A DNA stretch of 64,000 bases from Escherichia phage vB_EcoM_WFL6982. Location of the stretch: the sequence record MK373774.1; one strand, 5' to 3'. A program made the translations under genes and the position numbers. Below, piece after piece: positions 2,520-30,422 of the stretch. Below the pieces are notes generated by a model. It saw only the letters and a list, made by a program, of their open reading frames with translations, searched no databases and was not told the DNA's origin. Position 1 is the first letter of the stretch. Every line of letters starts with the position of its first letter.

Positions 2520-3620
2520 TTACGCTGTGAAGATTTTATCCCACATCGCAACAACTGCATCTCGATTATACTTCTTCCATACTGCTTCAGCACGTTTAAC
2601 TCGAGCTTCGTATGTGTCAGTGAATTCTAATACAGCTTTTGTGTAAAGCGCAACTACTTCTTTCTTAGGAGTAGAGGAATCAATTTCTACACGCACTGTA
2701 TCTGGGTCGTATTCGAATGTCGCATGAGGATAATCCTTAAAAACTAACTGGATTACAGGGACACCTTTAGAGATGGCTTCAATAGAACTATTCTCTACCG
2801 TACCTGTGTCAGGACACGTATTAATAAGTGCTTTAGCTGTTTTAAGACGTTCCATAATTTCACTGTGTGGAGCATCAATAATAACAGGATATTTAGCTGG
2901 TGGTGCCCATTTACTAGGACAGTATCCTGCACCATTTTCGCCTAGTGCTTTAATCGCTTCAAGAGCAACATCAGTACGACGCATTTTAGTGTCATAACGT
3001 TGTGCACTAATAATCAGATCAGTCGCTGGAAGAACTTCAGGTTTCTCATTCAAACAAATAACCGGATAATCTTCGGCTTCAAACAACGGATTTGCTCGCC
3101 AATAATCATAATCAATTTTGTCAGTCAGACCTGAAGTCATATAACAATATTTACGTTCAAATTCACGGAAGGCTTTAGTAGGAGCATAACTCTTACCACC
3201 ATTCTTATGAATTTGAATAGTCTGGTCCCAAATTTGAACAATGCCACGAGATACCGGTTCAAATGGTGTTGCCATAAAATTCTTATGAACTTTAGAGAGA
3301 CCTGCGTCTTTAATTGCCTGAACGGTTAGTTTAGTCGGTTCCATAGTAACAACAAAATCGTATTCATGGATGCCGGCTAGTTCAACAATCTTACGAGCCA
3401 TAGTATAACTCATACCTAGACCGAATTTAGTCAGATGACCAACAGGATGATGATTAACCTTCCAATCACCAAATGTGTCATTATCAAAACCAATATAATC
3501 AATATCGGCACCGATGGACACAAGATATTTCAACACATTTAAATGTACTGCTTCAAGACCACCTTGTACACGGTCAGGATTAAATGGGACTGCACGAGAT
3601 GGGATAAACATAACTTTCAT
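2520..3620 (-). CDS. putative glycosyltransferase (candidate 5-hmC sugar transferase, arabinosyltransferase-like)
   Basis: 366-aa ORF inserted between rIIA.1 and gene 39 where T4 has no such gene; N-terminus MKVMFIPSRA.. resembles a GT-B-type glycosyltransferase start; phage lacks alpha-gt/beta-gt homologs. Confidence 0.65.
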   Translation of the reverse strand: MKVMFIPSRAVPFNPDRVQGGLEAVHLNVLKYLVSIGADIDYIGFDNDTFGDWKVNHHPVGHLTKFGLGMSYTMARKIVELAGIHEYDFVVTMEPTKLTVQAIKDAGLSKVHKNFMATPFEPVSRGIVQIWDQTIQIHKNGGKSYAPTKAFREFERKYCYMTSGLTDKIDYDYWRANPLFEAEDYPVICLNEKPEVLPATDLIISAQRYDTKMRRTDVALEAIKALGENGAGYCPSKWAPPAKYPVIIDAPHSEIMERLKTAKALINTCPDTGTVENSSIEAISKGVPVIQLVFKDYPHATFEYDPDTVRVEIDSSTPKKEVVALYTKAVLEFTDTYEARVKRAEAVWKKYNRDAVVAMWDKIFTA

Positions 3621-9656: not shown

Positions 9657-10970
9657 TCAAATAAAATGGACGTCAAAACGACCACGAGTCGTGCCGACAT
9701 ACAATAACTGTTTAGCTAATTCTGAATCAGCATAATGGATACACGGTGTATAAACAAAGGCCGTGTCAACAGACATACCCTGGGCCTTATGGAAGGTTGA
9801 TACTGGTAGTGCCTTCACCTTAGTGAACATACGTTTAGCATCCCAGAATTCGCTCCATGGAGCTTTACCGCCTTTATTCCAGAATTTGTATGTTTCTGCG
9901 GTCTTAGCCAAAAACAAATTGAATTTATAAAGCTCTTCTTCAGAAGAAATAACCTTTATATCTTCTCGGATATATTCTTCATCATCCCCATATGTTTCTA
10001 CTGTAAGATTCCAGTATCGTATCATATATTCACCTGAAACACCACGTGCTTTAACGAATGTAGACGTTTCTACAGCATCTCGAATACGAACGAATTGCCC
10101 ATTATTGAAAAGCATTTCAGTCATATTTTTGCCATCTAGCTTGTACGTCTTAGTAAACGGCTCTTGTAGAACAATGACTTCGTCTTTAATAAATGGTTTT
10201 TCTGTTTCAAGAAGTTTTCGGCGAATAATTGAATTTAACTTGTCCACCGACTTATTTGTGAATGCCATCATTCGATTTTCGAAAAGGTCTTCAGGAGTTT
10301 TAACGACGTTAAAATAGTTCATCATATACGATTTAAGGTCTGTATATCCGTGAACACCGTGTCCATCAACTACTTTATCGTAAATCCATTTGCCATTACG
10401 AATATCAGTCGCAACATCAATAATTGGTGCATTGCTACGTTTAACTTCTGTAAGGTTGCATTGCACGAAGTCTTTGTGAGTGAAGAAAGGACTTAGATAC
10501 GCAGTTGATTCGCCTGGGTCTACCGGTCGAATCTGGCATCGGTCGCCGATTCCAATTACTGTACACCATTTAGGGATACTAGCTAACATTATTTTAAACA
10601 GAGAACGGTCGCACATTGACGCTTCATCAAATAGCAGTACACGACACAAGGCTAAGTCGGGAACCTTTTTCTGTTCAAACAATACGTTTTCTTCGTATGT
10701 AGTTGGGTTGATTTTAAGAATGCTATGAATAGTCGATGCTTCTTGACCCGCAAGTTTGCTTAGAACCTTTTTAGCAGCATGTGTAGGGGCTGCTAAAATA
10801 ATACCTGATTCTCCTGAAGAAATAAGAGCTTCAACAATAAATCTAGTAAGGGTTGTTTTACCTGTACCAGCCGGTCCATTAATAGTTACATGATGTTTCT
10901 TTTCTTTAATAGCTTCCATAACAACGTTGAAGGCGTTTTTCTGGCCTTCAGTCAAATCATCAAATGTCAT
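9657..10970 (-). CDS. dda: Dda DNA helicase (SF1B)
   Basis: 437 aa; Walker A GPAGTGKTT; near-colinear with T4 Dda as recalled from memory. Confidence 0.92.
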   Translation of the reverse strand: MTFDDLTEGQKNAFNVVMEAIKEKKHHVTINGPAGTGKTTLTRFIVEALISSGESGIILAAPTHAAKKVLSKLAGQEASTIHSILKINPTTYEENVLFEQKKVPDLALCRVLLFDEASMCDRSLFKIMLASIPKWCTVIGIGDRCQIRPVDPGESTAYLSPFFTHKDFVQCNLTEVKRSNAPIIDVATDIRNGKWIYDKVVDGHGVHGYTDLKSYMMNYFNVVKTPEDLFENRMMAFTNKSVDKLNSIIRRKLLETEKPFIKDEVIVLQEPFTKTYKLDGKNMTEMLFNNGQFVRIRDAVETSTFVKARGVSGEYMIRYWNLTVETYGDDEEYIREDIKVISSEEELYKFNLFLAKTAETYKFWNKGGKAPWSEFWDAKRMFTKVKALPVSTFHKAQGMSVDTAFVYTPCIHYADSELAKQLLYVGTTRGRFDVHFI

Positions 10971-11278
10971 CGTAAAGTCCCTGCAATTGGAATACTAACA
11001 ATACGGCCTGTGTCCAGGATTCGTTGATACAATCTTTGCGTCTCCGCATCTAGTTTAATGTGTTTCATTTCAAGCTTATTAAACCAGAACTTACGCGGAG
11101 TTTCGACCATTCTTAGAACTCCCATTTTTAAATCTGTTTTATACTGTGTTTTCAAAGTATCGAAAACTTTATCCGCAATATCCTTTCTAAAAAATACTGC
11201 AGGACGATGCTCATCAAGTGGAACCGGGACAGTAAATCCTTCCATATCTCGATAAACTATTGCATATACATAAACCAT
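10967..11278 (-). CDS. hypothetical protein (dda.1 position)
   Basis: 103-aa ORF overlapping dda start by 4 nt. Confidence 0.5.
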   Translation of the reverse strand: MVYVYAIVYRDMEGFTVPVPLDEHRPAVFFRKDIADKVFDTLKTQYKTDLKMGVLRMVETPRKFWFNKLEMKHIKLDAETQRLYQRILDTGRIVSIPIAGTLR

Positions 11279-11280
11279 AA

Positions 11281-12027
11281 TTAACCTTTAATCAGTTGGA
11301 ATAATGATGCGCTAAGTGGTAAGCCACGTTTCAATTTTAATTTACCAATGAAACCAATCTTTTCAAAACGTTGCAGACCTTGGATAACTTTATCATATGT
11401 ATCGAAAAGCGATTCAGCGTCAGTTAATTTAGTTTTAGTTTTCCAGTCAGAGCCTTTAAGAAGAACGTTGAGTTTAGTAAGTTCATGGCCTTCTGCTTGA
11501 TGTGAGCCATTAATGCGTGCTTTCAAAGCAACAATTCTAAGTTTAGATTCGTTAGATAAAGGTTGATTTTTCATCATGTTCGCCATATGCTTAACACGAT
11601 TTTCACGTTTTGCTCGGATTTTTAAAATAGTATCATAAACATTTTTAATTTGGGCCCATTTCTTCTCGTCGAGATTAAGTTTCTCTACTTTACGGGCAGA
11701 AGGATTAGCGATACGTCTTGCAATGGCATCACGTTTCACAATAAGTTCTTCTAATGTTAAATCAGAACGAGCCGTGTTATATTTTTTCTTAACTGGGATA
11801 ACATTACCTTTAATGTAGCCTATATCATTATTAAAACGTTCTAAGGATAATTTCTCACCTTCAACAGAGTTATTAAAGGATTCACCTGAGTAAGCGCAGA
11901 CCTTTTGATCAAGAATGTTTTTAAGGTAATTAAAGTCTAAGTTAAAATCCTTAGAGCGTCTCTTCGCAGAAGCTCTGGTGTGGTCAAGACGACGATTGAT
12001 TTTGTTAATTTTATTATTTGATAACAT
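11281..12027 (-). CDS. srd: hypothetical protein, Srd-like by size and position
   Basis: 248-aa basic ORF between dda.1 and modA, as T4 srd (about 250 aa); not verified by motif. Confidence 0.4.
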   Translation of the reverse strand: MLSNNKINKINRRLDHTRASAKRRSKDFNLDFNYLKNILDQKVCAYSGESFNNSVEGEKLSLERFNNDIGYIKGNVIPVKKKYNTARSDLTLEELIVKRDAIARRIANPSARKVEKLNLDEKKWAQIKNVYDTILKIRAKRENRVKHMANMMKNQPLSNESKLRIVALKARINGSHQAEGHELTKLNVLLKGSDWKTKTKLTDAESLFDTYDKVIQGLQRFEKIGFIGKLKLKRGLPLSASLFQLIKG

Positions 12028-15278: not shown

Positions 15279-15800
15279 TTAGTAACCATTATCCTGACGT
15301 TCAAAGTTGTGTTGGTTTTTCAAGTAGTAAAGTTTAAAGATTTCTTCTGCTGTAAGACCAAGACCCTGGAACATATTCAGAACGAAATGAAGAATATCAA
15401 TCATCTCAAATTTAATTTCAAGCTGGTCTTCAGGAGACAGTTCATCGATACGACGATTTCGATATTCAGCATGTTGTGCTTTCCATGGCTTCCATACACT
15501 GCTGGCAGCTTTTTCACCGTTGGACATACCACCAAGTGAAGTCAGCAGTTCACGGAATTCATCATCAATATAATCTTTCTGATTACGCAGCCAATCAACA
15601 ACATCGCCAGCAGTAGCCAATTCATCAGGATGTTTGTTATGTTCAGGCTTGTCATTTGCCAGACGAACCTGTAAAGATTTCTGCATATCAAGCATTACCT
15701 GCAGTGGGTCTTTATCTTCGTGAATCAGAGCATTAAAATAAGCTTCTTCTGCTTTATCAACACCAGAAATAAGTTGTGAACATTCGTTAAAGTGTGCCAT
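15279..15800 (-). CDS. 56: dCTP pyrophosphatase (dCTPase/dUTPase, MazG-like)
   Basis: start moved to ATG at 15800 (MAHFNE.., AAGGA SD); MazG-type all-alpha NTP-PPase; T4 gp56 position next to soc. Confidence 0.85.
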   Translation of the reverse strand: MAHFNECSQLISGVDKAEEAYFNALIHEDKDPLQVMLDMQKSLQVRLANDKPEHNKHPDELATAGDVVDWLRNQKDYIDDEFRELLTSLGGMSNGEKAASSVWKPWKAQHAEYRNRRIDELSPEDQLEIKFEMIDILHFVLNMFQGLGLTAEEIFKLYYLKNQHNFERQDNGY

Positions 15801-23873: not shown

Positions 23874-24422
23874 TTAACGAGCCCATTTAATGATTTCTGT
23901 AATCAAATTATTACGTTCGCTTGCATTAAATCCTATAACTTTGTTAGAACCATCATGATTAAGTAATTGATACGTTTGGATTTTGTTATGAATTGCAAAC
24001 TCTTCAAAATGTGAAATGACTGTATTAAAACCGAATGAAGACAAAGTAATAAGGTCGTCTTCAAAACTTTCAGTCATTTCGTTACGTGTTAAAATAATTG
24101 TGAACACATCATGGTTTTGGCAAAGACGAACATAATCCTGTTCATAAACGTCAAGAACCGAGTCCGCATCTTGTCGAATACGTCCATAAACCCAGTTACT
24201 AATATATCCACGGTCTAATAGATAAATCTTAGTAGGGTCTAAATAATTCAACATCGTTTCGAAACAGCCAACTTCATTTCGAGACTTAACATCGAAACGC
24301 CCATCAACTGTTCGTTTAGGGAAATCAATCTTTACATATCTTTCACTAATTTCCATTATGTCATTAATGAAAGTTGTTTTACCAGCATTATCCGGCCCGT
24401 CTACTAAAATAATTTTAGCCAT
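23874..24422 (-). CDS. P-loop nucleotide kinase, thymidylate-kinase-like
   Basis: 182 aa; P-loop LVDGPDNAGKTT resembles TMPK GxDGAGKTT; LDRGY resembles the TMPK DRY motif; occupies T4 beta-gt locus. Confidence 0.5.
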   Translation of the reverse strand: MAKIILVDGPDNAGKTTFINDIMEISERYVKIDFPKRTVDGRFDVKSRNEVGCFETMLNYLDPTKIYLLDRGYISNWVYGRIRQDADSVLDVYEQDYVRLCQNHDVFTIILTRNEMTESFEDDLITLSSFGFNTVISHFEEFAIHNKIQTYQLLNHDGSNKVIGFNASERNNLITEIIKWAR

Positions 24423-24423
24423 T

Positions 24424-25323
24424 TTATTCCTCGATTACGACATCTTCGTATTTAGGTATATTATACGGTGAAGAAATTAAAGCATTAAAGTAGATGAACT
24501 CACCAAGACCTGGATGGAATACTTCTTCAGGATTTTCGAAATATTGAATCTTCGGACGTCCTTTAAGAATTTGATAGTACTCAGTTTTAGTTGGATTAAA
24601 AATTCGAATCAGCGCTTCTTCAGGATACTTATTTCTGTCGAAACTATTATTTGGATCAGTTATATAAAGCGGTTGACCTAATTGAATTGCGCATTCAACC
24701 ACTTGTTCAAAACGATAGCATGGGTCACTAATTCGAAATGGATGAAAAATACCATCTAGATGAATAGGAGCCAAATCACCTACAAGACGCTGCATGACGG
24801 AAGGACGTATAACTTTCTGCGTTACGATAATCTTATTACCATCTGCACCTGCGTTAACCAGCACTTCTTTTTGACGTTCATTCAACACAGTAGTTTGAAG
24901 TGAACGATTAACAGACAACATGTCGGTTTTTAAGAATTCATCAATATAAAAACGTGGTTTATTAGGGTCTGCAGTGATATTGAAATTGAATTCTACATCA
25001 AAAGCGCCGTCATATCCAGTGATATCTGTGATTAGAAAATCACAATCATAATAAGCAATTAATGAATCAACCACAAATTCATTTTCAGACCAAAAATATT
25101 TACGAGTGTTATACGCGTTATCTTTATACCATAATGGAACAAACTTAAATTCTGGGAAAAGACGTTCACATTCTTTAATATCAGATGCATTACGTGGATA
25201 TGTAATCACATCACCCGGATTAGCACGGTGCAAATGAAGTTGGAAGTTGCCATCCTTAAGGATAGCATACTGTCCAGTTTCATAAGACCGCATACTCAAG
25301 ATAGGTACGCGGAAAATAGCCAT
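24424..25323 (-). CDS. hypothetical protein at beta-gt locus (function unknown, possible DNA-modification enzyme)
   Basis: 299-aa ORF between TMPK-like gene and gene 42; no recognisable motif. Confidence 0.55.
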   Translation of the reverse strand: MAIFRVPILSMRSYETGQYAILKDGNFQLHLHRANPGDVITYPRNASDIKECERLFPEFKFVPLWYKDNAYNTRKYFWSENEFVVDSLIAYYDCDFLITDITGYDGAFDVEFNFNITADPNKPRFYIDEFLKTDMLSVNRSLQTTVLNERQKEVLVNAGADGNKIIVTQKVIRPSVMQRLVGDLAPIHLDGIFHPFRISDPCYRFEQVVECAIQLGQPLYITDPNNSFDRNKYPEEALIRIFNPTKTEYYQILKGRPKIQYFENPEEVFHPGLGEFIYFNALISSPYNIPKYEDVVIEE

Positions 25324-26039
25324 TAGTCAAGGAATCCTTTAACATAATCAAAATCACGTTCAAACACATGGGCACTTACCATGGTATGAGTATAATCACC
25401 AACTTCTACACCACATTCGTTAGCGATATAATGAAGTAATTTTCCTTGGAGATAAAAATCCAACTGCATAACAACAGCACAGTTCTGGGAACGCATATGA
25501 CAGTGGGTATAAAGCTTACCGTCACGAATATAATAAGTCACTGAGTCAGTACATGGATATTCAAGCGTTTCGTCCGAATCAAGCAAAGCCTGATCAGAAC
25601 TTTCTAGAATTTGGAACACAACTCTTCGGGAGTTAGGCTTCTCTTTAAGTTCTTTTAGAAGAGCTGGTAATTGGGCCGCAATGCGAGGACCATAGAAAGT
25701 GTTGAAGTTCGCCGGCAAAACATCTGATTTTGGTTTAGAAATAAATTTAGCGACATTAGGATATGCCTTAAACGCTTCTTCTGCGTTGGTACCACCAGAA
25801 ATCATAAACTTCCAGAAGTCTTCGGCATATTCATAAGAGATGCGGTTAATACGTGGGTCAGTCATTTTGAATGATGATGGAGTGTCAACAACTACTGTCA
25901 TAGACCCAATTTCATTACAACGTCCAATACGAGAATCAGTTACGAATTCCGGGTTTTCTAAAATTTCACGATTGACTGCTTTAAATGCGGTTTGAAAATC
26001 TGCGGCTTTGATATATTTCATTGTGTTATGTTTTCCCAT
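25323..26039 (-). CDS. 42: dCMP hydroxymethylase (thymidylate synthase fold)
   Basis: 238 aa; TS-like fold with catalytic Cys context (YPCTD); T4 gp42 size and position. Confidence 0.85.
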   Translation of the reverse strand: MGKHNTMKYIKAADFQTAFKAVNREILENPEFVTDSRIGRCNEIGSMTVVVDTPSSFKMTDPRINRISYEYAEDFWKFMISGGTNAEEAFKAYPNVAKFISKPKSDVLPANFNTFYGPRIAAQLPALLKELKEKPNSRRVVFQILESSDQALLDSDETLEYPCTDSVTYYIRDGKLYTHCHMRSQNCAVVMQLDFYLQGKLLHYIANECGVEVGDYTHTMVSAHVFERDFDYVKGFLD

Positions 26040-26081: not shown

Positions 26082-26321
26082 TTATTTGAATTTCTTGACA
26101 ATGTTGATATAACGTAAAGCTTCAGCATCGATACTTCCAAGAACACTATGAAGAAATGCATCAGCGTAGTATTCCAATTGAACAGGTTCTTTAATCACTT
26201 TAGCCGCTTTAGTTTCAAACAGGCCCATAAGGGCCTTTTTAAGAATTTGTTCGTTAGTGTTCAGTTTAATAGTCAAAATCTCTTCATTAAGTTGGTGATT
26301 AAAAGTTTTTCTAGAAATCAT
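26082..26321 (-). CDS. hypothetical protein
   Basis: 79-aa ORF, ATGA overlap with upstream gene. Confidence 0.45.
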   Translation of the reverse strand: MISRKTFNHQLNEEILTIKLNTNEQILKKALMGLFETKAAKVIKEPVQLEYYADAFLHSVLGSIDAEALRYINIVKKFK

Positions 26322-27487
26322 TCCGGGTACCTCAGAGCGTCATCAGAGTTAGTTATATCAATAATAGATATAGAGTTTTCTGCTAACCCGTTTTTAGATA
26401 ATTGACGTTTATAATATCTTTCACAATATGTACACGTTGATCCACAGATTTCATTAGCACAATCAAAATCTGGATGTCTGAACCACCTTTTTTCTAAAAA
26501 GCCATCTAACAAAGAGGTTTCAATATTTACTGTATGTGAAAACTCAGTTTCATTTTCAAGAGTGAAAATAGTCTCTAAAGGCTTCCACAGTTCTAACAAA
26601 TTACCTTCAAACTTTTCAGAAGCGTATGCTTCAAGAACTTTCAAAATGTAGTCTGTGCTACCTGTACGTCCTGAAACTTTGAATTGAGTGATACCAATAT
26701 CATTATAAAGTTTCAAATCTTGAGGACGAACAAAACGAGTTCTCAACCAGTTAAATGGGTCTGTATCACGAGCTTTAATACAGTGCTGCATTGGATATCC
26801 GTTTAAGGATTTAGCATCATCAGCTGTAACATCAGTACTATGGAAAATATAGCAAGAGTCACGATAGCTACAATGTGTTGTATACCCTTTACCAGCGTTA
26901 GAACAGAACTCATTTACAAGAACTTCAAATATTATATTGTTCTTATTGCAAAACTCTGCTGCACGCTTCAGGAAAGAAACTGAACGGTTCTTATGAATTC
27001 CACAGCAGACCTTTTTGATATTGTATTGGTCATGTAAGTATTTTATTTGAGTTACAGCATCGACATGTAGAATTGTTGAAACTTCAATCTCAATGTCTTT
27101 ATTGACTTCACGAACAATTTCCATAACAACAGGGTTAGCGATAGTAATACGCCATACGCCTATTGACCAAAGATACTGAACATAATCCTGAATAGCTTTC
27201 TTCTTCCACTCGACTAGTTCTCTTTTTGAACCAGGATTTATCGTGTTGAGTGTATAGTTAAAGCAAATACCTAATTCGTTACAACGTTTAACGTAATCTT
27301 CTAACATCTTTTTGTCGACGTCAGGAAGCCTAAAATCAGGTCTGGCTGCTACAAAAGCCATTTCTCTTGTAGAGCCGTATACTTCGTTTATCAAGCTATT
27401 AGGATAAGTTTTATTGAGCTCTACGATTTTATCAAGAAGAGCTAAATCAAAATTCGTTCCGATTTTAAAAGTATTCATTTTTTGCAT
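26318..27487 (-). CDS. Cys-rich U32-like (peptidase U32 / putative Fe-S enzyme family) protein
   Basis: 389 aa; IEIEVS..YLHDQYNIKKV and EVLVNEFCSNAGKGYTTHCSY blocks resemble E. coli YhbU-type U32 proteins; C-terminal CANEICGSTCTYC cluster. Confidence 0.45.
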   Translation of the reverse strand: MQKMNTFKIGTNFDLALLDKIVELNKTYPNSLINEVYGSTREMAFVAARPDFRLPDVDKKMLEDYVKRCNELGICFNYTLNTINPGSKRELVEWKKKAIQDYVQYLWSIGVWRITIANPVVMEIVREVNKDIEIEVSTILHVDAVTQIKYLHDQYNIKKVCCGIHKNRSVSFLKRAAEFCNKNNIIFEVLVNEFCSNAGKGYTTHCSYRDSCYIFHSTDVTADDAKSLNGYPMQHCIKARDTDPFNWLRTRFVRPQDLKLYNDIGITQFKVSGRTGSTDYILKVLEAYASEKFEGNLLELWKPLETIFTLENETEFSHTVNIETSLLDGFLEKRWFRHPDFDCANEICGSTCTYCERYYKRQLSKNGLAENSISIIDITNSDDALRYPE

Positions 27488-27533
27488 CTCGCGTTAATTG
27501 ATGCGATGGTTTTTGCAGGTCTTACTTAAATTA

Positions 27534-27935
27534 TTATAGATTCGGTTTATATGATTTAAATGTTTCGAATTCGCCTTTATTCATAAGAGCTTTGAATTCG
27601 TCAGGACGCATAGCTTTGTCGTCGATAATCCAATCATATACTGGTTTATGTGTTAGCAAATTATGGTACTTCAAGCCAATGTTTGCCAAGTTCTGAATCA
27701 GACTTGGGAGAATGTCAATTGCTATACGACCAGGACCTACTGACTTCATACCGCGAGCAGTGTAAAGCGTTATGGTATGCCCTGCATCATACAGGGCATT
27801 AATGGCAGACACCATTTCGACGTCTGGTTTGAAGTTCACGTAATCACGATTGTTATTCCACTCTGTTATACAATCATCGACATCAAAACAAAGATTAAGC
27901 ATGTTTTCTACACGGTGCATTAGATTCGTTCCCAT
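27534..27935 (-). CDS. small HAD-superfamily phosphatase
   Basis: 133 aa; HAD motif I FDVDDCIT, motif II T (LYTARG), motif III K...DD (KPVYDWIIDDK). Confidence 0.6.
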   Translation of the reverse strand: MGTNLMHRVENMLNLCFDVDDCITEWNNNRDYVNFKPDVEMVSAINALYDAGHTITLYTARGMKSVGPGRIAIDILPSLIQNLANIGLKYHNLLTHKPVYDWIIDDKAMRPDEFKALMNKGEFETFKSYKPNL

Positions 27936-29605
27936 TGATGAGTGATATCGCCACCGATTGGACGATAAGAAACACCAGTTTCTTTATCAGTTAGTACCCA
28001 TTTACCAGGATTTTTTGTAATCAGAGTAGCCGTTACAGGTTCTGCTACGTCATAACTAATAGAGCCGTCTTGAAGTACACGGCCCATGTTACGTAATTGC
28101 TTAGTCAGAAGTTCCATACCTTTATAATATGCAGCTACCGCTTTAAGTGGATTATTCTTGAAATAACCACCTAATGCAATCCAGATAATTGCCACTGCCA
28201 AATGATGATACTCGTTAAACGAACTCATCTTTCCATATTTGTAAACTAATGGATTGATGTTAATAGTCACATTACAAGTTGTTTCATCAATAGTAAACTG
28301 TCCCCAGGTCGGATTAGCATTGAATTCATCATAACCTGAAACAGCGTAAAGCACTTTAGCTTCATCGTACAATTTTGGCCCGTAAATCTTGGTTTCGCCA
28401 AAATATCCGCGAGGGTCGATAAACTTGACTTCGCCATCATCAGTAATCATAGTATTACTGAAGTTCGGGTCACCATGAATAACAGAGTACTGTCCCTGAG
28501 AACGATTATGATAACGAATAAGGTGTTCTAAAGCTTGTTTCAGCATTGGCTTCAGACGTCCAATCTTAGTGTAGTTCACATGTGTGATTTTACCAAATGA
28601 ATCAATCAATGGTTGAATGCTTTCACAACGATCAATAACTTTCGTATAGAACTCTTTAGTGAAATCACGGCGAACAGTTTCAGGACTTACAAAATACGTG
28701 TCTGTGCTGAATTTCAGTGCATCTAAAATTGCATCAACAATTTGTGGACGAGCAAGACTTGATTTGGATTTAATATATTCAAATGCCGGCTTACCTTTAA
28801 TGCGTTCCATTTCAAAGTTATTTTCATTAACAGAAACTAACTGAGGAACTGAATCTGATTTCACTTTCAAATACCACGAAATCTCATCTTTCTGAAGAGC
28901 TCGTCCCTGTTCGGTTAATGCGAATTTAGTTACAGTTTCTTCACCAATTTCAACTGCATTAAAACTACGATTAAGTTCACGAACTTCATGAGCTTTTTCA
29001 AGTTTAGGCATATCACCTAAATCAATTATATTCATAAGCTCTGATTTATTGAATGCGCCGCTGTAAAGGAATTCTACGAAATCACGTCCTTTGCAGTATT
29101 CATGAATTTCCTCATCGGTAGAACCCATATAGAATTCCCAGTCTTTGAACTGATAAATTCCTACAACATTACCACCTGTTGAACCTACGTTAGTGATATT
29201 TTCACCGTCGAAATTATACCGACATTCGTCACCCTTAACATAGATTGCGTTAACATTCCAAGACCATGAACCAAAATCAGGAATAATATCACACCAGTTA
29301 ACAATTACATTATGGCCGTCTAAATCTTTGTGTAATTTAGCAAGAGCATAAGCAGAACCGTACGCTTCATCAACTGTACGAATAGTCACATTGAACCCTT
29401 CTTGCTCACAATAAGCTCGAACAGTTTCAGCAAATTTTGAATGAACTACTACAATAATTTCATCTGCGCCAAGGTCAGAATAAATTGTATACAAATTGCT
29501 CAGAATAGTGTCTTGTTTATAGTTAACAAGCACCTTAGGAATATGATGCGTTATTGGATATAAACGAGTCGCCAGTCCAGCACCAAGAATAACAGCTTTT
29601 TTCAT
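27920..29605 (-). CDS. bifunctional sugar-1-phosphate nucleotidyltransferase / sugar kinase (APH/choline-kinase fold)
   Basis: 561 aa; N-terminal AVILGAGLATRLYPIT..PKVLV nucleotidyltransferase signature; C-terminal kinase motifs IHGDPNFSN and FIDPRG. Confidence 0.7.
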   Translation of the reverse strand: MKKAVILGAGLATRLYPITHHIPKVLVNYKQDTILSNLYTIYSDLGADEIIVVVHSKFAETVRAYCEQEGFNVTIRTVDEAYGSAYALAKLHKDLDGHNVIVNWCDIIPDFGSWSWNVNAIYVKGDECRYNFDGENITNVGSTGGNVVGIYQFKDWEFYMGSTDEEIHEYCKGRDFVEFLYSGAFNKSELMNIIDLGDMPKLEKAHEVRELNRSFNAVEIGEETVTKFALTEQGRALQKDEISWYLKVKSDSVPQLVSVNENNFEMERIKGKPAFEYIKSKSSLARPQIVDAILDALKFSTDTYFVSPETVRRDFTKEFYTKVIDRCESIQPLIDSFGKITHVNYTKIGRLKPMLKQALEHLIRYHNRSQGQYSVIHGDPNFSNTMITDDGEVKFIDPRGYFGETKIYGPKLYDEAKVLYAVSGYDEFNANPTWGQFTIDETTCNVTININPLVYKYGKMSSFNEYHHLAVAIIWIALGGYFKNNPLKAVAAYYKGMELLTKQLRNMGRVLQDGSISYDVAEPVTATLITKNPGKWVLTDKETGVSYRPIGGDITHQWERI

Positions 29606-29646
29606 GTTGAAGTCCTCATTGGTAAGTAGGAGTATTGTACACTATT

Positions 29647-29790
29647 CTAGTTAAAGCATTCATACTTTGCTTGTAGTCCAATCATAATCCATCCAATTAC
29701 AAGTGTTGGAATCATTACTGGAGCCGTTAAGCTCCAGTAGATAGTCATGACAAACATCAATAGTAAAAGTCCTATTGTTATTGCTTTCAT
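29647..29790 (-). CDS. small single-pass/hairpin membrane protein (possibly Imm-like)
   Basis: 47-aa hydrophobic ORF MKAITIGLLLLMFVMTIYWSL.., ATGA overlap with upstream SIS gene; not in ORF track. Confidence 0.4.
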   Translation of the reverse strand: MKAITIGLLLLMFVMTIYWSLTAPVMIPTLVIGWIMIGLQAKYECFN

Positions 29791-30422
29791 TGTTCGCCTC
29801 GTAACATGGCACCTAGTGCACCGCCTGGATGGAACTTAAGGAAATCATTAGAGGTAAATCCACGTTCAGACGAAAGGTTGATAGCGAACGTATCGATAAG
29901 CGCTAACAACAATGTAGTAGACATTGTCGGAGCTAAAGAGTTCTCGTCAACTTCTACCGCGATACCGGTACAGAACGTATAATCAAAAAGAGCTTCGTAT
30001 TCTTGTGGAATGTCAGGGTTACAATGTAACAGAATCTGTTTAACCTGAGGACGAATCATACGAAGATGTTTAGCAACACCTATCATTTCTTCAGTCTTAC
30101 CAGAACGACTGATGTGAACTAATACATCATTAGGTGCAATAAATCCTGCGTCACCATGAGAATAATGCCCAGTGTTCAAATACATGCTAGGAATACCTAG
30201 TGAAGCAAAAGTCTCGGAAGCTTTAGTTGCGATATTAGCGTTCTTACCAACACCTGTAATAATTACACGACTTTCATAATTACTCAGTCCAGGGCGACGA
30301 AGAGTTTCTAGAATAGCATTATAACGAGCAGGGTTTTGACTAATTACTTTAGCCATAGTGGCAAGAGAAGAAGCTTGTTTTATGATTGCGTCAATAGCGA
30401 TAGTGATTGGTGTAGTTTTCAT
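29787..30422 (-). CDS. SIS-domain sugar-phosphate isomerase, D-arabinose-5-phosphate isomerase (KdsD/GutQ-like, no CBS domains)
   Basis: 211 aa; RVIITGVGKN..HGD..ISRSGKT..LAPTMSTT..HPGGALG aligns block by block with E. coli KdsD SIS domain as recalled. Confidence 0.85.
   Translation of the reverse strand: MKTTPITIAIDAIIKQASSLATMAKVISQNPARYNAILETLRRPGLSNYESRVIITGVGKNANIATKASETFASLGIPSMYLNTGHYSHGDAGFIAPNDVLVHISRSGKTEEMIGVAKHLRMIRPQVKQILLHCNPDIPQEYEALFDYTFCTGIAVEVDENSLAPTMSTTLLLALIDTFAINLSSERGFTSNDFLKFHPGGALGAMLRGEQ

Follow-up and report, generated by a model that had tools for sequence, protein, structure and literature searches.

Arabinose was found on the DNA of bacteriophage RB69 by Thomas et al. 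(2018), who proposed for RB69 the same sugar-donor module that is considered here; the modified base was first reported as arabinosyl-5-hydroxymethylcytosine (ara-hmC) (PMC6024577). The hydroxymethylcytosine (hmC) assignment has since been called erroneous, the base being arabosyl-O-C5 cytosine, i.e. arabinosyl-5-hydroxycytosine (ara-5hoC), and work on the Durham collection extends arabinosylation to Bas46/47, NP and other phages (PMC13390438). An ether link directly at C5 has been shown for RB69, and mono- or di-arabinosyl-5-hydroxycytosine in place of cytosine has been shown in the virion DNA of RB69, NP and Bas46/47. Mahler et al. in 2025 are said to have extended the work on arabinosylated DNA to Bas46/47, NP and others. 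On the enzyme side, Lee et al. (2026) assigned RB69 gp51, gp52:53 and gp55 to a route from ribulose-5-phosphate (Ru5P) to nucleoside diphosphate (NDP)-arabinofuranose (PMC13326640). According to the account of He et al. (2026) given in PMC13326640, AfhE of phage HY126 combines two activities, that of a D-arabinose-5-phosphate (Ara5P) kinase and that of a UDP-arabinose pyrophosphorylase, and the substrate of AfhF, a Mg-dependent phosphatase, is arabinose-1,5-bisphosphate (Ara-1,5-P2). Here we analyze the corresponding cluster of six open reading frames (orfs) located at 26082-30422 in a 64,000-nt stretch of Escherichia phage vB_EcoM_WFL6982 [GenBank: MK373774.1], the whole of which is referred to below as the window.

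The cluster very probably makes up that half of the ara-5hoC DNA hypermodification system which provides the sugar donor in RB69-like phages. The window and RB69 are collinear, and the proteins encoded in the window share 96.6-100% identity with their HY126 and 97-99.5% with their RB69 counterparts; by this near-identity, on which every step described below is based, the published enzymology would carry over to the present phage. An earlier note on this DNA, made from its letters alone, had regarded the pathway as uncharacterised. The module is in fact already known: it was proposed by Thomas et al. in 2018 and worked out in 2025-26 in phages with near-identical proteins, and the finding of the cluster is a correct re-discovery combined with a correction of the base chemistry, the pathway idea itself not being new. 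The cluster consists of the following orfs:

26082-26321, minus strand: orf of 79 amino acids, homolog of RB69 ORF049c, phrog_8601
26318-27487, minus strand: U32-family Cys-rich TIM-barrel protein, 389 amino acids, homolog of RB69 ORF050c
27534-27935, minus strand: predicted AfhF-type Mg-dependent HAD phosphatase, 133 amino acids, homolog of RB69 ORF051c
27920-29605, minus strand: predicted bifunctional AfhE-type kinase/nucleotidyltransferase, 561 amino acids, homolog of RB69 ORF053c+052c
29647-29790, minus strand: hydrophobic membrane peptide, 47 amino acids, RB69 ORF054c region, phrog_3610
29787-30422, minus strand: predicted D-arabinose-5-phosphate isomerase with SIS domain, 211 amino acids, homolog of RB69 ORF055c

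All six orfs were present exactly where the earlier note had placed them, as a co-directional and tightly packed set with three overlaps (4, 16 and 4 nt) and intervals of 40-46 nt otherwise. The block is located between a thymidylate synthase (TS) homolog and the DNA polymerase gene, and the observation that T4 is devoid of this module was confirmed, since genes 42 and 43 of T4 are separated by imm and imm.1 only. About 150 records of RB69-like (Mosigvirus) phages contain the region with a DNA identity of about 98% or higher, and each orf constitutes its own PHROG family; therefore the orfs are real genes and not chance reading frames. A 4.5-kb region is 100% identical, at the same coordinates, in vB_EcoM_WFK [GenBank: MK373775.1], where the genes are labeled hypothetical. 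In the relative Bas46 they are annotated as "putative enzyme involved in UDP-arabinose biosynthesis", "putative phosphatase" and "putative phosphosugar isomerase".

The assignments of SIS, HAD, nucleotidyltransferase plus kinase and U32 domains made in the earlier note held in profile and sequence searches of Pfam, NCBIfam and the PDB. The product of 29787-30422 matched the Pfam SIS domain (8.5e-10) and, in residues 48-207, the NCBIfam models KpsF/GutQ (8.8e-32) and KdsD (3.8e-30), with scores of 105-111 bits that stay under the full-length cutoffs of 204-505. It carries the GxGKS/N loop of the SIS domain as GVGKN at residue 57, is 98.1% identical to its HY126 and 97.2% to its RB69 counterpart, and its PDB sequence matches were 3etn (1e-24) and 2xhz (2e-18). 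The SIS domain is common to KdsD/GutQ and the phage isomerase, whereas the tandem C-terminal CBS domains of the former (an architecture of about 320 amino acids) are absent from the latter, which resembles the single-domain SIS protein 3etn, an arabinose-5-phosphate isomerase of Bacteroides fragilis (PMC13326640). The enzyme is thus predicted to convert Ru5P, supplied by the host, to Ara5P.

The protein of 561 amino acids has the architecture of AfhE (96.6% identity to the HY126 protein), with an N-terminal sugar-1-phosphate nucleotidyltransferase fused to a C-terminal kinase of the APH fold. The N-terminal part was recognized by Pfam as NTP_transferase (8.4e-10, residues 3-99), is matched in the PDB by 1jyk (1.9e-5) and contains the nucleotidyltransferase motif GAGLATRL at residue 8. 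The C-terminal part gave weak Pfam matches to Fructosamin_kin, EcKL and RIO1 in residues 308-409 and contains motifs of the APH/choline-kinase type, HGDPNFSN at residue 377 and IDPRG at residue 396. The kinase domain would phosphorylate C1 of Ara5P to give Ara-1,5-P2. The 5-phosphate would then be taken off by the 133-amino acid HAD phosphatase, which is 100% identical to the HY126 AfhF protein, carries HAD motif I as DVDD and matched PDB entries 9iqw (7.8e-88), which is a near-identical structure, and 1xpj (5e-10) as well as NCBIfam TIGR01689, a capsule-biosynthesis HAD phosphatase (4.3e-13). The resulting arabinose-1-phosphate and UTP would be joined by the N-terminal uridylyltransferase domain to form UDP-D-arabinofuranose. 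The route from Ru5P to an NDP-pentose drawn in the earlier note is in this respect upheld, with UDP-D-arabinofuranose as a donor for DNA cytosines; the order of its steps is not, since the phosphatase had been put before the anomeric kinase and the published order is isomerase, C1-kinase, 5-phosphatase and uridylyltransferase.

The base and transfer arm of the system is encoded outside the cluster, mostly next to it, by the following genes:

25323-26039, minus strand: predicted 5-hydroxy-dCMP synthase, TS homolog, homolog of RB69 gp48
24424-25323, minus strand: DNA arabinosyltransferase 1, 299 amino acids, predicted to add the base-proximal arabinose, RB69 ORF046c+047c
23874-24422, minus strand: thymidylate-kinase-like nucleotide kinase, homolog of RB69 ORF045c
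2520-3620, minus strand: predicted DNA arabinosyltransferase 2, for the second arabinose, outside the cluster coordinates, homolog of RB69 ORF003c
15282-15800, minus strand: gp56 dCTPase homolog, found by tblastn with RB69 gp56

In the earlier note the gene adjacent to the cluster had been read as dCMP hydroxymethylase (gene 42) and hmC as the acceptor base. The TS homolog is only 25% identical to T4 gp42, and 99.2% to RB69 gp48 and 97.9% to its HY126 counterpart. In the alignment it shows RSQN at 183-186, with Asn at the position of ThyA D169, against RSND in T4 gp42 and RSCD in E. coli ThyA, and has the catalytic PCT at residue 162; PDB entries 9iqc/9ir2 (7.9e-161) and 9iqu represent near-identical structures. 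Asn at this position is the signature of 5-hydroxy-dCMP synthases, and RB69 gp48 has been shown to bind flavin and to make 5-hydroxy-dCMP (5hodCMP) with oxygen derived from 18O2; alone or with the dNMP kinase it makes 5-hydroxycytosine (5hoC) in E. coli, and flavin mononucleotide (FMN) is bound only loosely by the TS homolog (PMC13326640). As judged from its sequence, the protein is a flavin/O2-dependent 5-hydroxy-dCMP synthase and not a dCMP hydroxymethylase, and the predicted acceptor is 5-hydroxycytosine.

The TS homolog would thus hydroxylate dCMP, and kinases would raise the product to the triphosphate. The thymidylate-kinase-like (Tmk-like) protein, 98.4% identical to both its RB69 and HY126 counterparts, matches phrog_761 thymidylate kinase (1.7e-45) and, weakly, the NCBIfam dTMP kinase model. 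The gp56 homolog (97.7% identity to RB69 gp56 over 173 amino acids in tblastn) presumably removes dCTP so that only the modified dCTP is incorporated by the polymerase, in keeping with the role of gp56 in T4 and in the RB69 annotation. One or two arabinoses would then be added on DNA by the two arabinosyltransferases, whose activity is predicted from the literature. The first (phrog_3891) is 98-99% identical to RB69 and 98.7% to HY126, its role being assigned in PMC13326640 Table 1; the second (phrog_8302) is 99.5% identical to RB69 ORF003c and its role is assigned in PMC6024577 and PMC13326640. As to the absence of T4-type glucosyltransferases claimed in the earlier note, tblastn with T4 beta-gt found no homolog in the window, which covers 64 kb of the genome (best E = 2.6), and no search was made for alpha-gt.

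Several points weigh against this reconstruction. For the present phage all steps are drawn from protein identity, the HY126 enzymology is second-hand, being available through PMC13326640, and Table 1 of that paper keeps the older order of phosphatase then kinase. The last point suits a different scheme, in which an uncharacterised NDP-arabinose pathway proceeds via isomerase, phosphatase to free arabinose, anomeric kinase and nucleotidyltransferase and feeds glycosylation of hmC made by a gp42-type enzyme. It would use the same enzymes and it agrees with the first report of ara-hmC in RB69 (PMC6024577). We nevertheless consider it very unlikely: Asn is found at the ThyA-169 position in a protein 99% identical to the 5hodCMP-forming RB69 gp48, the hmC assignment was later called erroneous (PMC13390438), AfhE is reported, as far as PMC13326640 relays it, to act as a kinase on Ara5P and AfhF to remove a phosphate from the bisphosphate, and the module was published as early as 2018.

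The isomerase, kinase and phosphatase could also be viewed as auxiliary metabolic genes that alter the 3-deoxy-D-manno-octulosonic acid (KDO)/lipopolysaccharide (LPS) or capsule of the host and do not act on phage DNA. Ara5P is a precursor of KDO, and database names such as "capsule biosynthesis protein", "phosphoheptose isomerase" and "GlmU" point the same way. The genes are nevertheless set among those for a base hydroxylase, a DNA arabinosyltransferase and the polymerase and co-occur with them across genera, and arabinose has been found on the DNA of RB69, NP, Bas46/47 and DLP3, which makes this explanation scarcely credible.

Some further features of the locus may be noted. The orf of 47 amino acids, listed in the earlier note as a small membrane protein, is indeed uniformly hydrophobic (Kyte-Doolittle means over 19 residues of 0.95-1.99 along the whole peptide); it overlaps the isomerase gene by 4 nt and is conserved in HY126 (95.7%), RB69 (97.9%) and Erwinia phage Virsaitis27 (57%). 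A scan of the cluster for sigma-70 promoters and terminators gave results at chance level (25 found against 25.2 expected). A consensus T4 MotA-box, AATGCTTTA, is present at 29652-29660 on the minus strand, about 50 nt upstream of the kinase/nucleotidyltransferase start codon, and may belong to a middle promoter; over the whole window matches to the MotA-box are enriched (25 found against 10 expected). In a transposon-mutagenesis preprint on LC53/Bas46, a look for essentiality data on the genes of the cluster found none. The genes at 24424-25323 (299 amino acids) and 27920-29605 (561 amino acids) are unbroken here, and each of them is split in two in the RB69 GenBank record; the unbroken orfs independently support the published view that the splits in RB69 are sequencing errors.

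The earlier note had listed the U32-family protein encoded at 26318-27487 and the small orfs and had given them no role. The U32 protein matches Pfam Peptidase_U32 (7.4e-11), has a TIM-barrel fold and contains ten invariant Cys residues; the structure was modeled from an alignment of 55 sequences, and a single-sequence AlphaFold model (pLDDT 44) was set aside. A PDB sequence search with this protein gave no match. Its best profile match among the E. coli U32 proteins was RlhA, the synthase of 5-hydroxycytidine (ho5C) in rRNA (hhalign probability 78%), matches to UbiU and TrhP being weak. In the hhalign alignment C206 and C212 correspond to Cys1 and Cys2 of RlhA at x5 spacing, and Cys3 and Cys4 do not align; hhalign was preferred because MAFFT, applied to phage U32 and the four paralogs of E. 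coli, aligned the Cys region unreliably. RlhA, TrhP and UbiU/V contain Fe-S clusters, require prephenate and function in the absence of O2; in E. coli, TrhP has an O2-dependent counterpart in TrhO, as UbiU/V have in flavin hydroxylases (PMC5727448, PMC6599085, PMC10990095). Many GenBank records and PHROGs label such proteins as peptidases, and a collagenase-like peptidase unrelated to DNA modification would accord with that label. The family name is a historical one, though: RlhA, TrhP and UbiU/V are required for hydroxylation, and the gene context of the phage protein is always one of nucleotide or sugar modification, so that we regard a peptidase as highly improbable.

Across T4-like genera no other protein of the cluster is nearly as well conserved as U32 (identities of 82-89%, compared with 42-51% for the kinase/nucleotidyltransferase and 38-42% for the Tmk-like kinase). 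In Klebsiella-type loci the values are 86-89% for U32, 78-80% for the TS homolog, 69% for the arabinosyltransferase, 66-67% for the HAD phosphatase, 44% for the kinase/nucleotidyltransferase and 38-42% for the Tmk-like kinase. U32 homologs, all of at least 82% identity, were found in 221 phage records, whose listed host genera are enterobacterial plus Shewanella, Acinetobacter not being among them. The kinase/nucleotidyltransferase fusion is present in 376 records, 57 of them from Acinetobacter phages. No U32 is present in the clusters of Acinetobacter phage AM101 and of Pseudomonas phage PspYZU05, where the HAD and TS genes are neighbours, or almost so, and enclose no other gene. The same layout is seen in phage DLP3, whose cluster gp76-83 is without U32 and which makes tri-arabinosylated 5hoC (PMC13326640). 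Since complete donor sets exist without U32 and DLP3 tri-arabinosylates without it, the sugar pathway does not need this protein.

In all T4-like loci the U32 gene stands directly upstream of the TS homolog. In Virsaitis27 the gene that overlaps the end of U32 and directly precedes the TS homolog encodes a chorismate mutase (CM; L002:6158-6502; Pfam CM_2 1.7e-11). A Pfam-verified chorismate mutase follows U32 directly in 14 of the 17 T4-like loci examined (noted also at L022-L035), and most T4-like phages outside Mosigvirus that have the cluster carry it between U32 and the TS-type hydroxylase. The same type of enzyme occurs in 56 phage records, the hosts being Serratia, Klebsiella, Yersinia, Enterobacter, Proteus, Edwardsiella, Pectobacterium and Shewanella. 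Neither this window nor the other Mosigviruses have it.

More distant, non-T4 homologs of U32 (45-58% identity) are abundant in metagenomes, and those inspected reside on phage contigs of 40-466 kb with DnaE-type polymerases. Clustering at 90% identity reduced 37 such loci to 29 lineages, in each of which the 10 kb on either side of the U32 gene were searched. A full-length homolog of arabinosyltransferase 1 (E 1e-9 to 2e-16) was found in 22 of the 29 lineages, abutting U32 upstream or overlapping it in 10, and a Tmk-like kinase in 24, although the iterative HMM used for the latter may take in generic P-loop kinases. The kinase/nucleotidyltransferase fusion was detected in 11 lineages, the SIS isomerase in eight and a Pfam-verified chorismate mutase in five, three of the five being fusions of DAHP synthase (DAHPS) with chorismate mutase. 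In several jumbo contigs the gene order is U32, chorismate mutase, glycosyltransferase (GT), kinase/nucleotidyltransferase, and NAD-epimerase and UDP-galactopyranose-mutase genes also cluster with the non-T4 U32. Only one lineage has a TS-family gene nearby; this gene (L036) was considered as a hydroxylase and rejected, as it encodes an ordinary thymidylate synthase (RSGDL, Pfam 2.8e-72).

These neighbourhoods bear on what U32 might do. The U32 protein, perhaps together with the 79-amino acid product, may be a second, prephenate-dependent and O2-independent cytosine hydroxylase that works with an Fe-S centre and takes its oxygen from host prephenate; for the present phage we consider the chances of this proposal evenly balanced. 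A glycosyltransferase that would use the hydroxyl, in many cases enzymes that raise prephenate, and the lack of a TS gene indicate that U32 sits where a base hydroxylase is needed. With the TS homolog it would form a dual anaerobic/aerobic route to 5hoC, as TrhO/TrhP and UbiH,F,I/UbiU,V do for their products in E. coli. In enterobacterial T4-like phages U32 would serve as an anaerobic backup beside the O2/flavin 5hodCMP synthase. In many uncultured polIII-type phages it would be the only hydroxylase, coupled to a glycosyltransferase and often accompanied by a CM or DAHPS-CM of its own. As Mosigviruses have no chorismate mutase, prephenate would have to come from host PheA/TyrA. The broader proposition, that U32 defines a subfamily of pyrimidine C5-hydroxylases which depend on prephenate and not on O2, act on DNA precursors or DNA and were seen on phage and viral contigs only, is put forward tentatively, at somewhat under an even chance. 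Literature searches found no published link of phage U32 or chorismate mutase to 5hoC, He 2026 and Mahler 2025 lying outside their reach, and that the proposal is both right and unpublished appears to us a little less probable than the opposite.

The placement of U32 next to the TS homolog could also mean that it is an Fe-S electron-transfer partner reducing the flavin of the TS-type 5hodCMP synthase, for which the invariant Cys residues and the loosely bound FMN would be suitable. This is improbable in view of the 28 of 29 non-T4 lineages that have no TS-family gene nearby, the last one having an ordinary ThyA; besides, RB69 gp48 makes 5hoC in E. coli alone or with the dNMP kinase, and the linkage to chorismate mutase would be left unexplained. 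Lee et al. in turn list RB69 gp50 as "sugar or heterocycle reductase" in Table 1, peptidase, chorismate and prephenate being unmentioned in their text (PMC13326640). A reductase or other redox enzyme acting on a sugar or heterocycle in the donor pathway would fit the clustering of the non-T4 U32 with kinase/nucleotidyltransferase, SIS, NAD-epimerase and UDP-galactopyranose-mutase genes. It fits poorly with the complete donor sets of Acinetobacter and Pseudomonas phages and the tri-arabinosylation by DLP3 without U32, and with ten non-T4 lineages in which the Tmk-like kinase, arabinosyltransferase 1 homolog and U32 are present with no sugar-activation genes nearby. It also does not account for the chorismate mutase linkage, prephenate being a known co-substrate of U32 hydroxylases, and we hold it to be unlikely.

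The hydroxylase proposal has its own difficulties. The window encodes no chorismate mutase, the canonical CX6CX15CX3-4C spacing is not kept (just Cys1 and Cys2 align, at x5), and the match to RlhA reaches a probability of only 78%, those to UbiU and TrhP being weak. Hydroxylation in vitro has not been demonstrated for any U32 protein (PMC10990095). The E. coli Dhakavirus VR5 is without U32, so that the correlation with host lifestyle is not strict, and the non-T4 phages appear to infect Bacteroidota, aerobes included. The neighbourhood counts cover only the 10 kb on each side of U32, and the linkage to sugar-activation genes fits a sugar-directed role equally well. What the proposal would offer is an answer to a question left unexplained in the literature seen, namely how the modification is kept up when coliphages replicate in the anoxic gut and the known 5hoC synthase needs O2. 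If it is true, prephenate-dependent hydroxylation could be reconstituted in vitro far more easily with a soluble U32 enzyme whose substrate is a simple nucleotide than with rRNA, tRNA or a polyprenyl quinone.

The orf of 79 amino acids, whose start overlaps the U32 stop codon by 4 nt, might be an accessory subunit of U32, which is a guess. It gave no Pfam or NCBIfam match, and phrog_8601 (2.8e-51) is an orphan family of unknown function; homologs occur in Mosigvirus, Yersinia phage phiR1-RT (42%), Pectobacterium phage PM2 and Serratia phage 92A1 (31%). A degenerate AroQ (CM_2) chorismate mutase was considered and rejected, as there was no Pfam match at E <= 1, hhalign against the phage chorismate mutase family gave 0.2%, and phiR1-RT and 92A1 carry both genes. 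The orf is whole here and in RB69 and is split by a frameshift in the HY126 record (L015:6001-6239), which means either that it is dispensable in the laboratory or that the record contains a sequencing error.

Several arrangements were noticed around U32 in other phages. A Tmk-like kinase, an arabinosyltransferase 1 homolog and U32 form a trio directly upstream of a DnaE-type polymerase in L016-L019, L037, L041, L042, L047, L049 and L061, with U32 at about 10001-11100 in most of them and no TS-type hydroxylase within 10 kb. The trio suggests glycosylated hydroxypyrimidine DNA in uncultured phages, and if the hydroxylase proposal is true it predicts glycosylated 5-hydroxypyrimidine DNA in many of them. 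In L017 the order is arabinosyltransferase 1 homolog, U32, a weak TAGT-like glycosyltransferase (11098-12000) and dUTPase/DCD, with UDP-galactopyranose mutase (GLF) further downstream. Radical-SAM genes, some with SPASM, are present between the Tmk-like kinase and the GT-U32 pair in several polIII-type contigs (L018:7980-9011, L019:7972-9000, L006:1-249). In megaphage-like contigs of up to 466 kb U32 directly follows a dCMP deaminase gene (L006:7447-8004, L007:7504-7929) and is followed by a conserved orf of 248-254 amino acids with a faint likeness to NAD-epimerases, no glycosyltransferase homolog being found within 8 kb.

Fused DAHPS-CM genes, which join the entry enzyme of the shikimate pathway to the prephenate-forming enzyme, lie beside U32 on uncultured phage contigs (L045:8399-9430, L046:3-968, L048:7290-8354, L058:11082-12200). 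Their nearest named cellular relatives (43-46% identity) are from Bacteroidota of both oxygen lifestyles, so that the fusion, weighed as a pointer to an anaerobic host of the non-T4 phages, decides neither way. The Klebsiella/Proteus-type loci L021, L025, L026 and L032 and E. coli phage VR5 (L011) keep the kinase/nucleotidyltransferase (42-44%), HAD phosphatase, TS-type hydroxylase and glycosyltransferase; no SIS isomerase was found in the former within 10 kb, nor in VR5 within about 7 kb. Such clusters may use a different sugar or Ara5P made by the host.

Compared with the described systems, the locus is closest to Afh of HY126 and the gp45-gp55 cluster of RB69, with which it shares the genes, their order, the D169N hydroxylase, two arabinosyltransferases and the dCTPase. 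There is essentially no difference from these phages, the present one being another isolate of the same genus, and only the orf breaks in the records differ. The cluster of Acinetobacter phage DLP3 and Lazarusvirus contains the isomerase, kinase/nucleotidyltransferase, HAD phosphatase, TS-type hydroxylase, arabinosyltransferase and Tmk-like kinase; their order is unchanged and the identities are 46-69%. It differs in having no U32, 79-amino acid orf or chorismate mutase between the HAD and TS genes, and in two extra glycosyltransferases that lead to tri-arabinosylation. With T4 glucosylation of hmC the system has a common logic (a TS-family enzyme acting on dCMP, exclusion of dCTP by dCTPase, and glycosyltransferases acting after replication) and the same genomic neighbourhood. 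T4, however, makes a 5-hydroxymethyl base by folate chemistry and uses UDP-glucose of the host, whereas here a 5-hydroxy base, flavin/O2 chemistry and an arabinose donor made by the phage are predicted.

The pairing of an O2/flavin hydroxylase with a U32-family Cys-rich protein recalls TrhO/TrhP, which form 5-hydroxyuridine in tRNA (ho5U34), and UbiH,F,I/UbiU,V of ubiquinone synthesis in E. coli. The pyrimidine C5-OH made with RlhA (ho5C2501) and TrhP is the same target chemistry as that proposed for phage U32, relatives of which carry chorismate mutase beside them. The phage proteins form a subfamily of their own, encountered in this analysis on phage and viral contigs only, and differ from the E. 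coli U32 proteins in the non-canonical Cys spacing, an extra C-terminal CX4CX3CX2C group, the absence of RNA-binding extensions and the proposed substrate, a deoxynucleotide or DNA. Finally, L017 has the oxygenase-plus-glycosyltransferase layout of the TET/JBP + TAGT cassettes of phages (Iyer et al. 2013), with U32 occupying the oxygenase slot in place of the O2-dependent 2-oxoglutarate dioxygenase.

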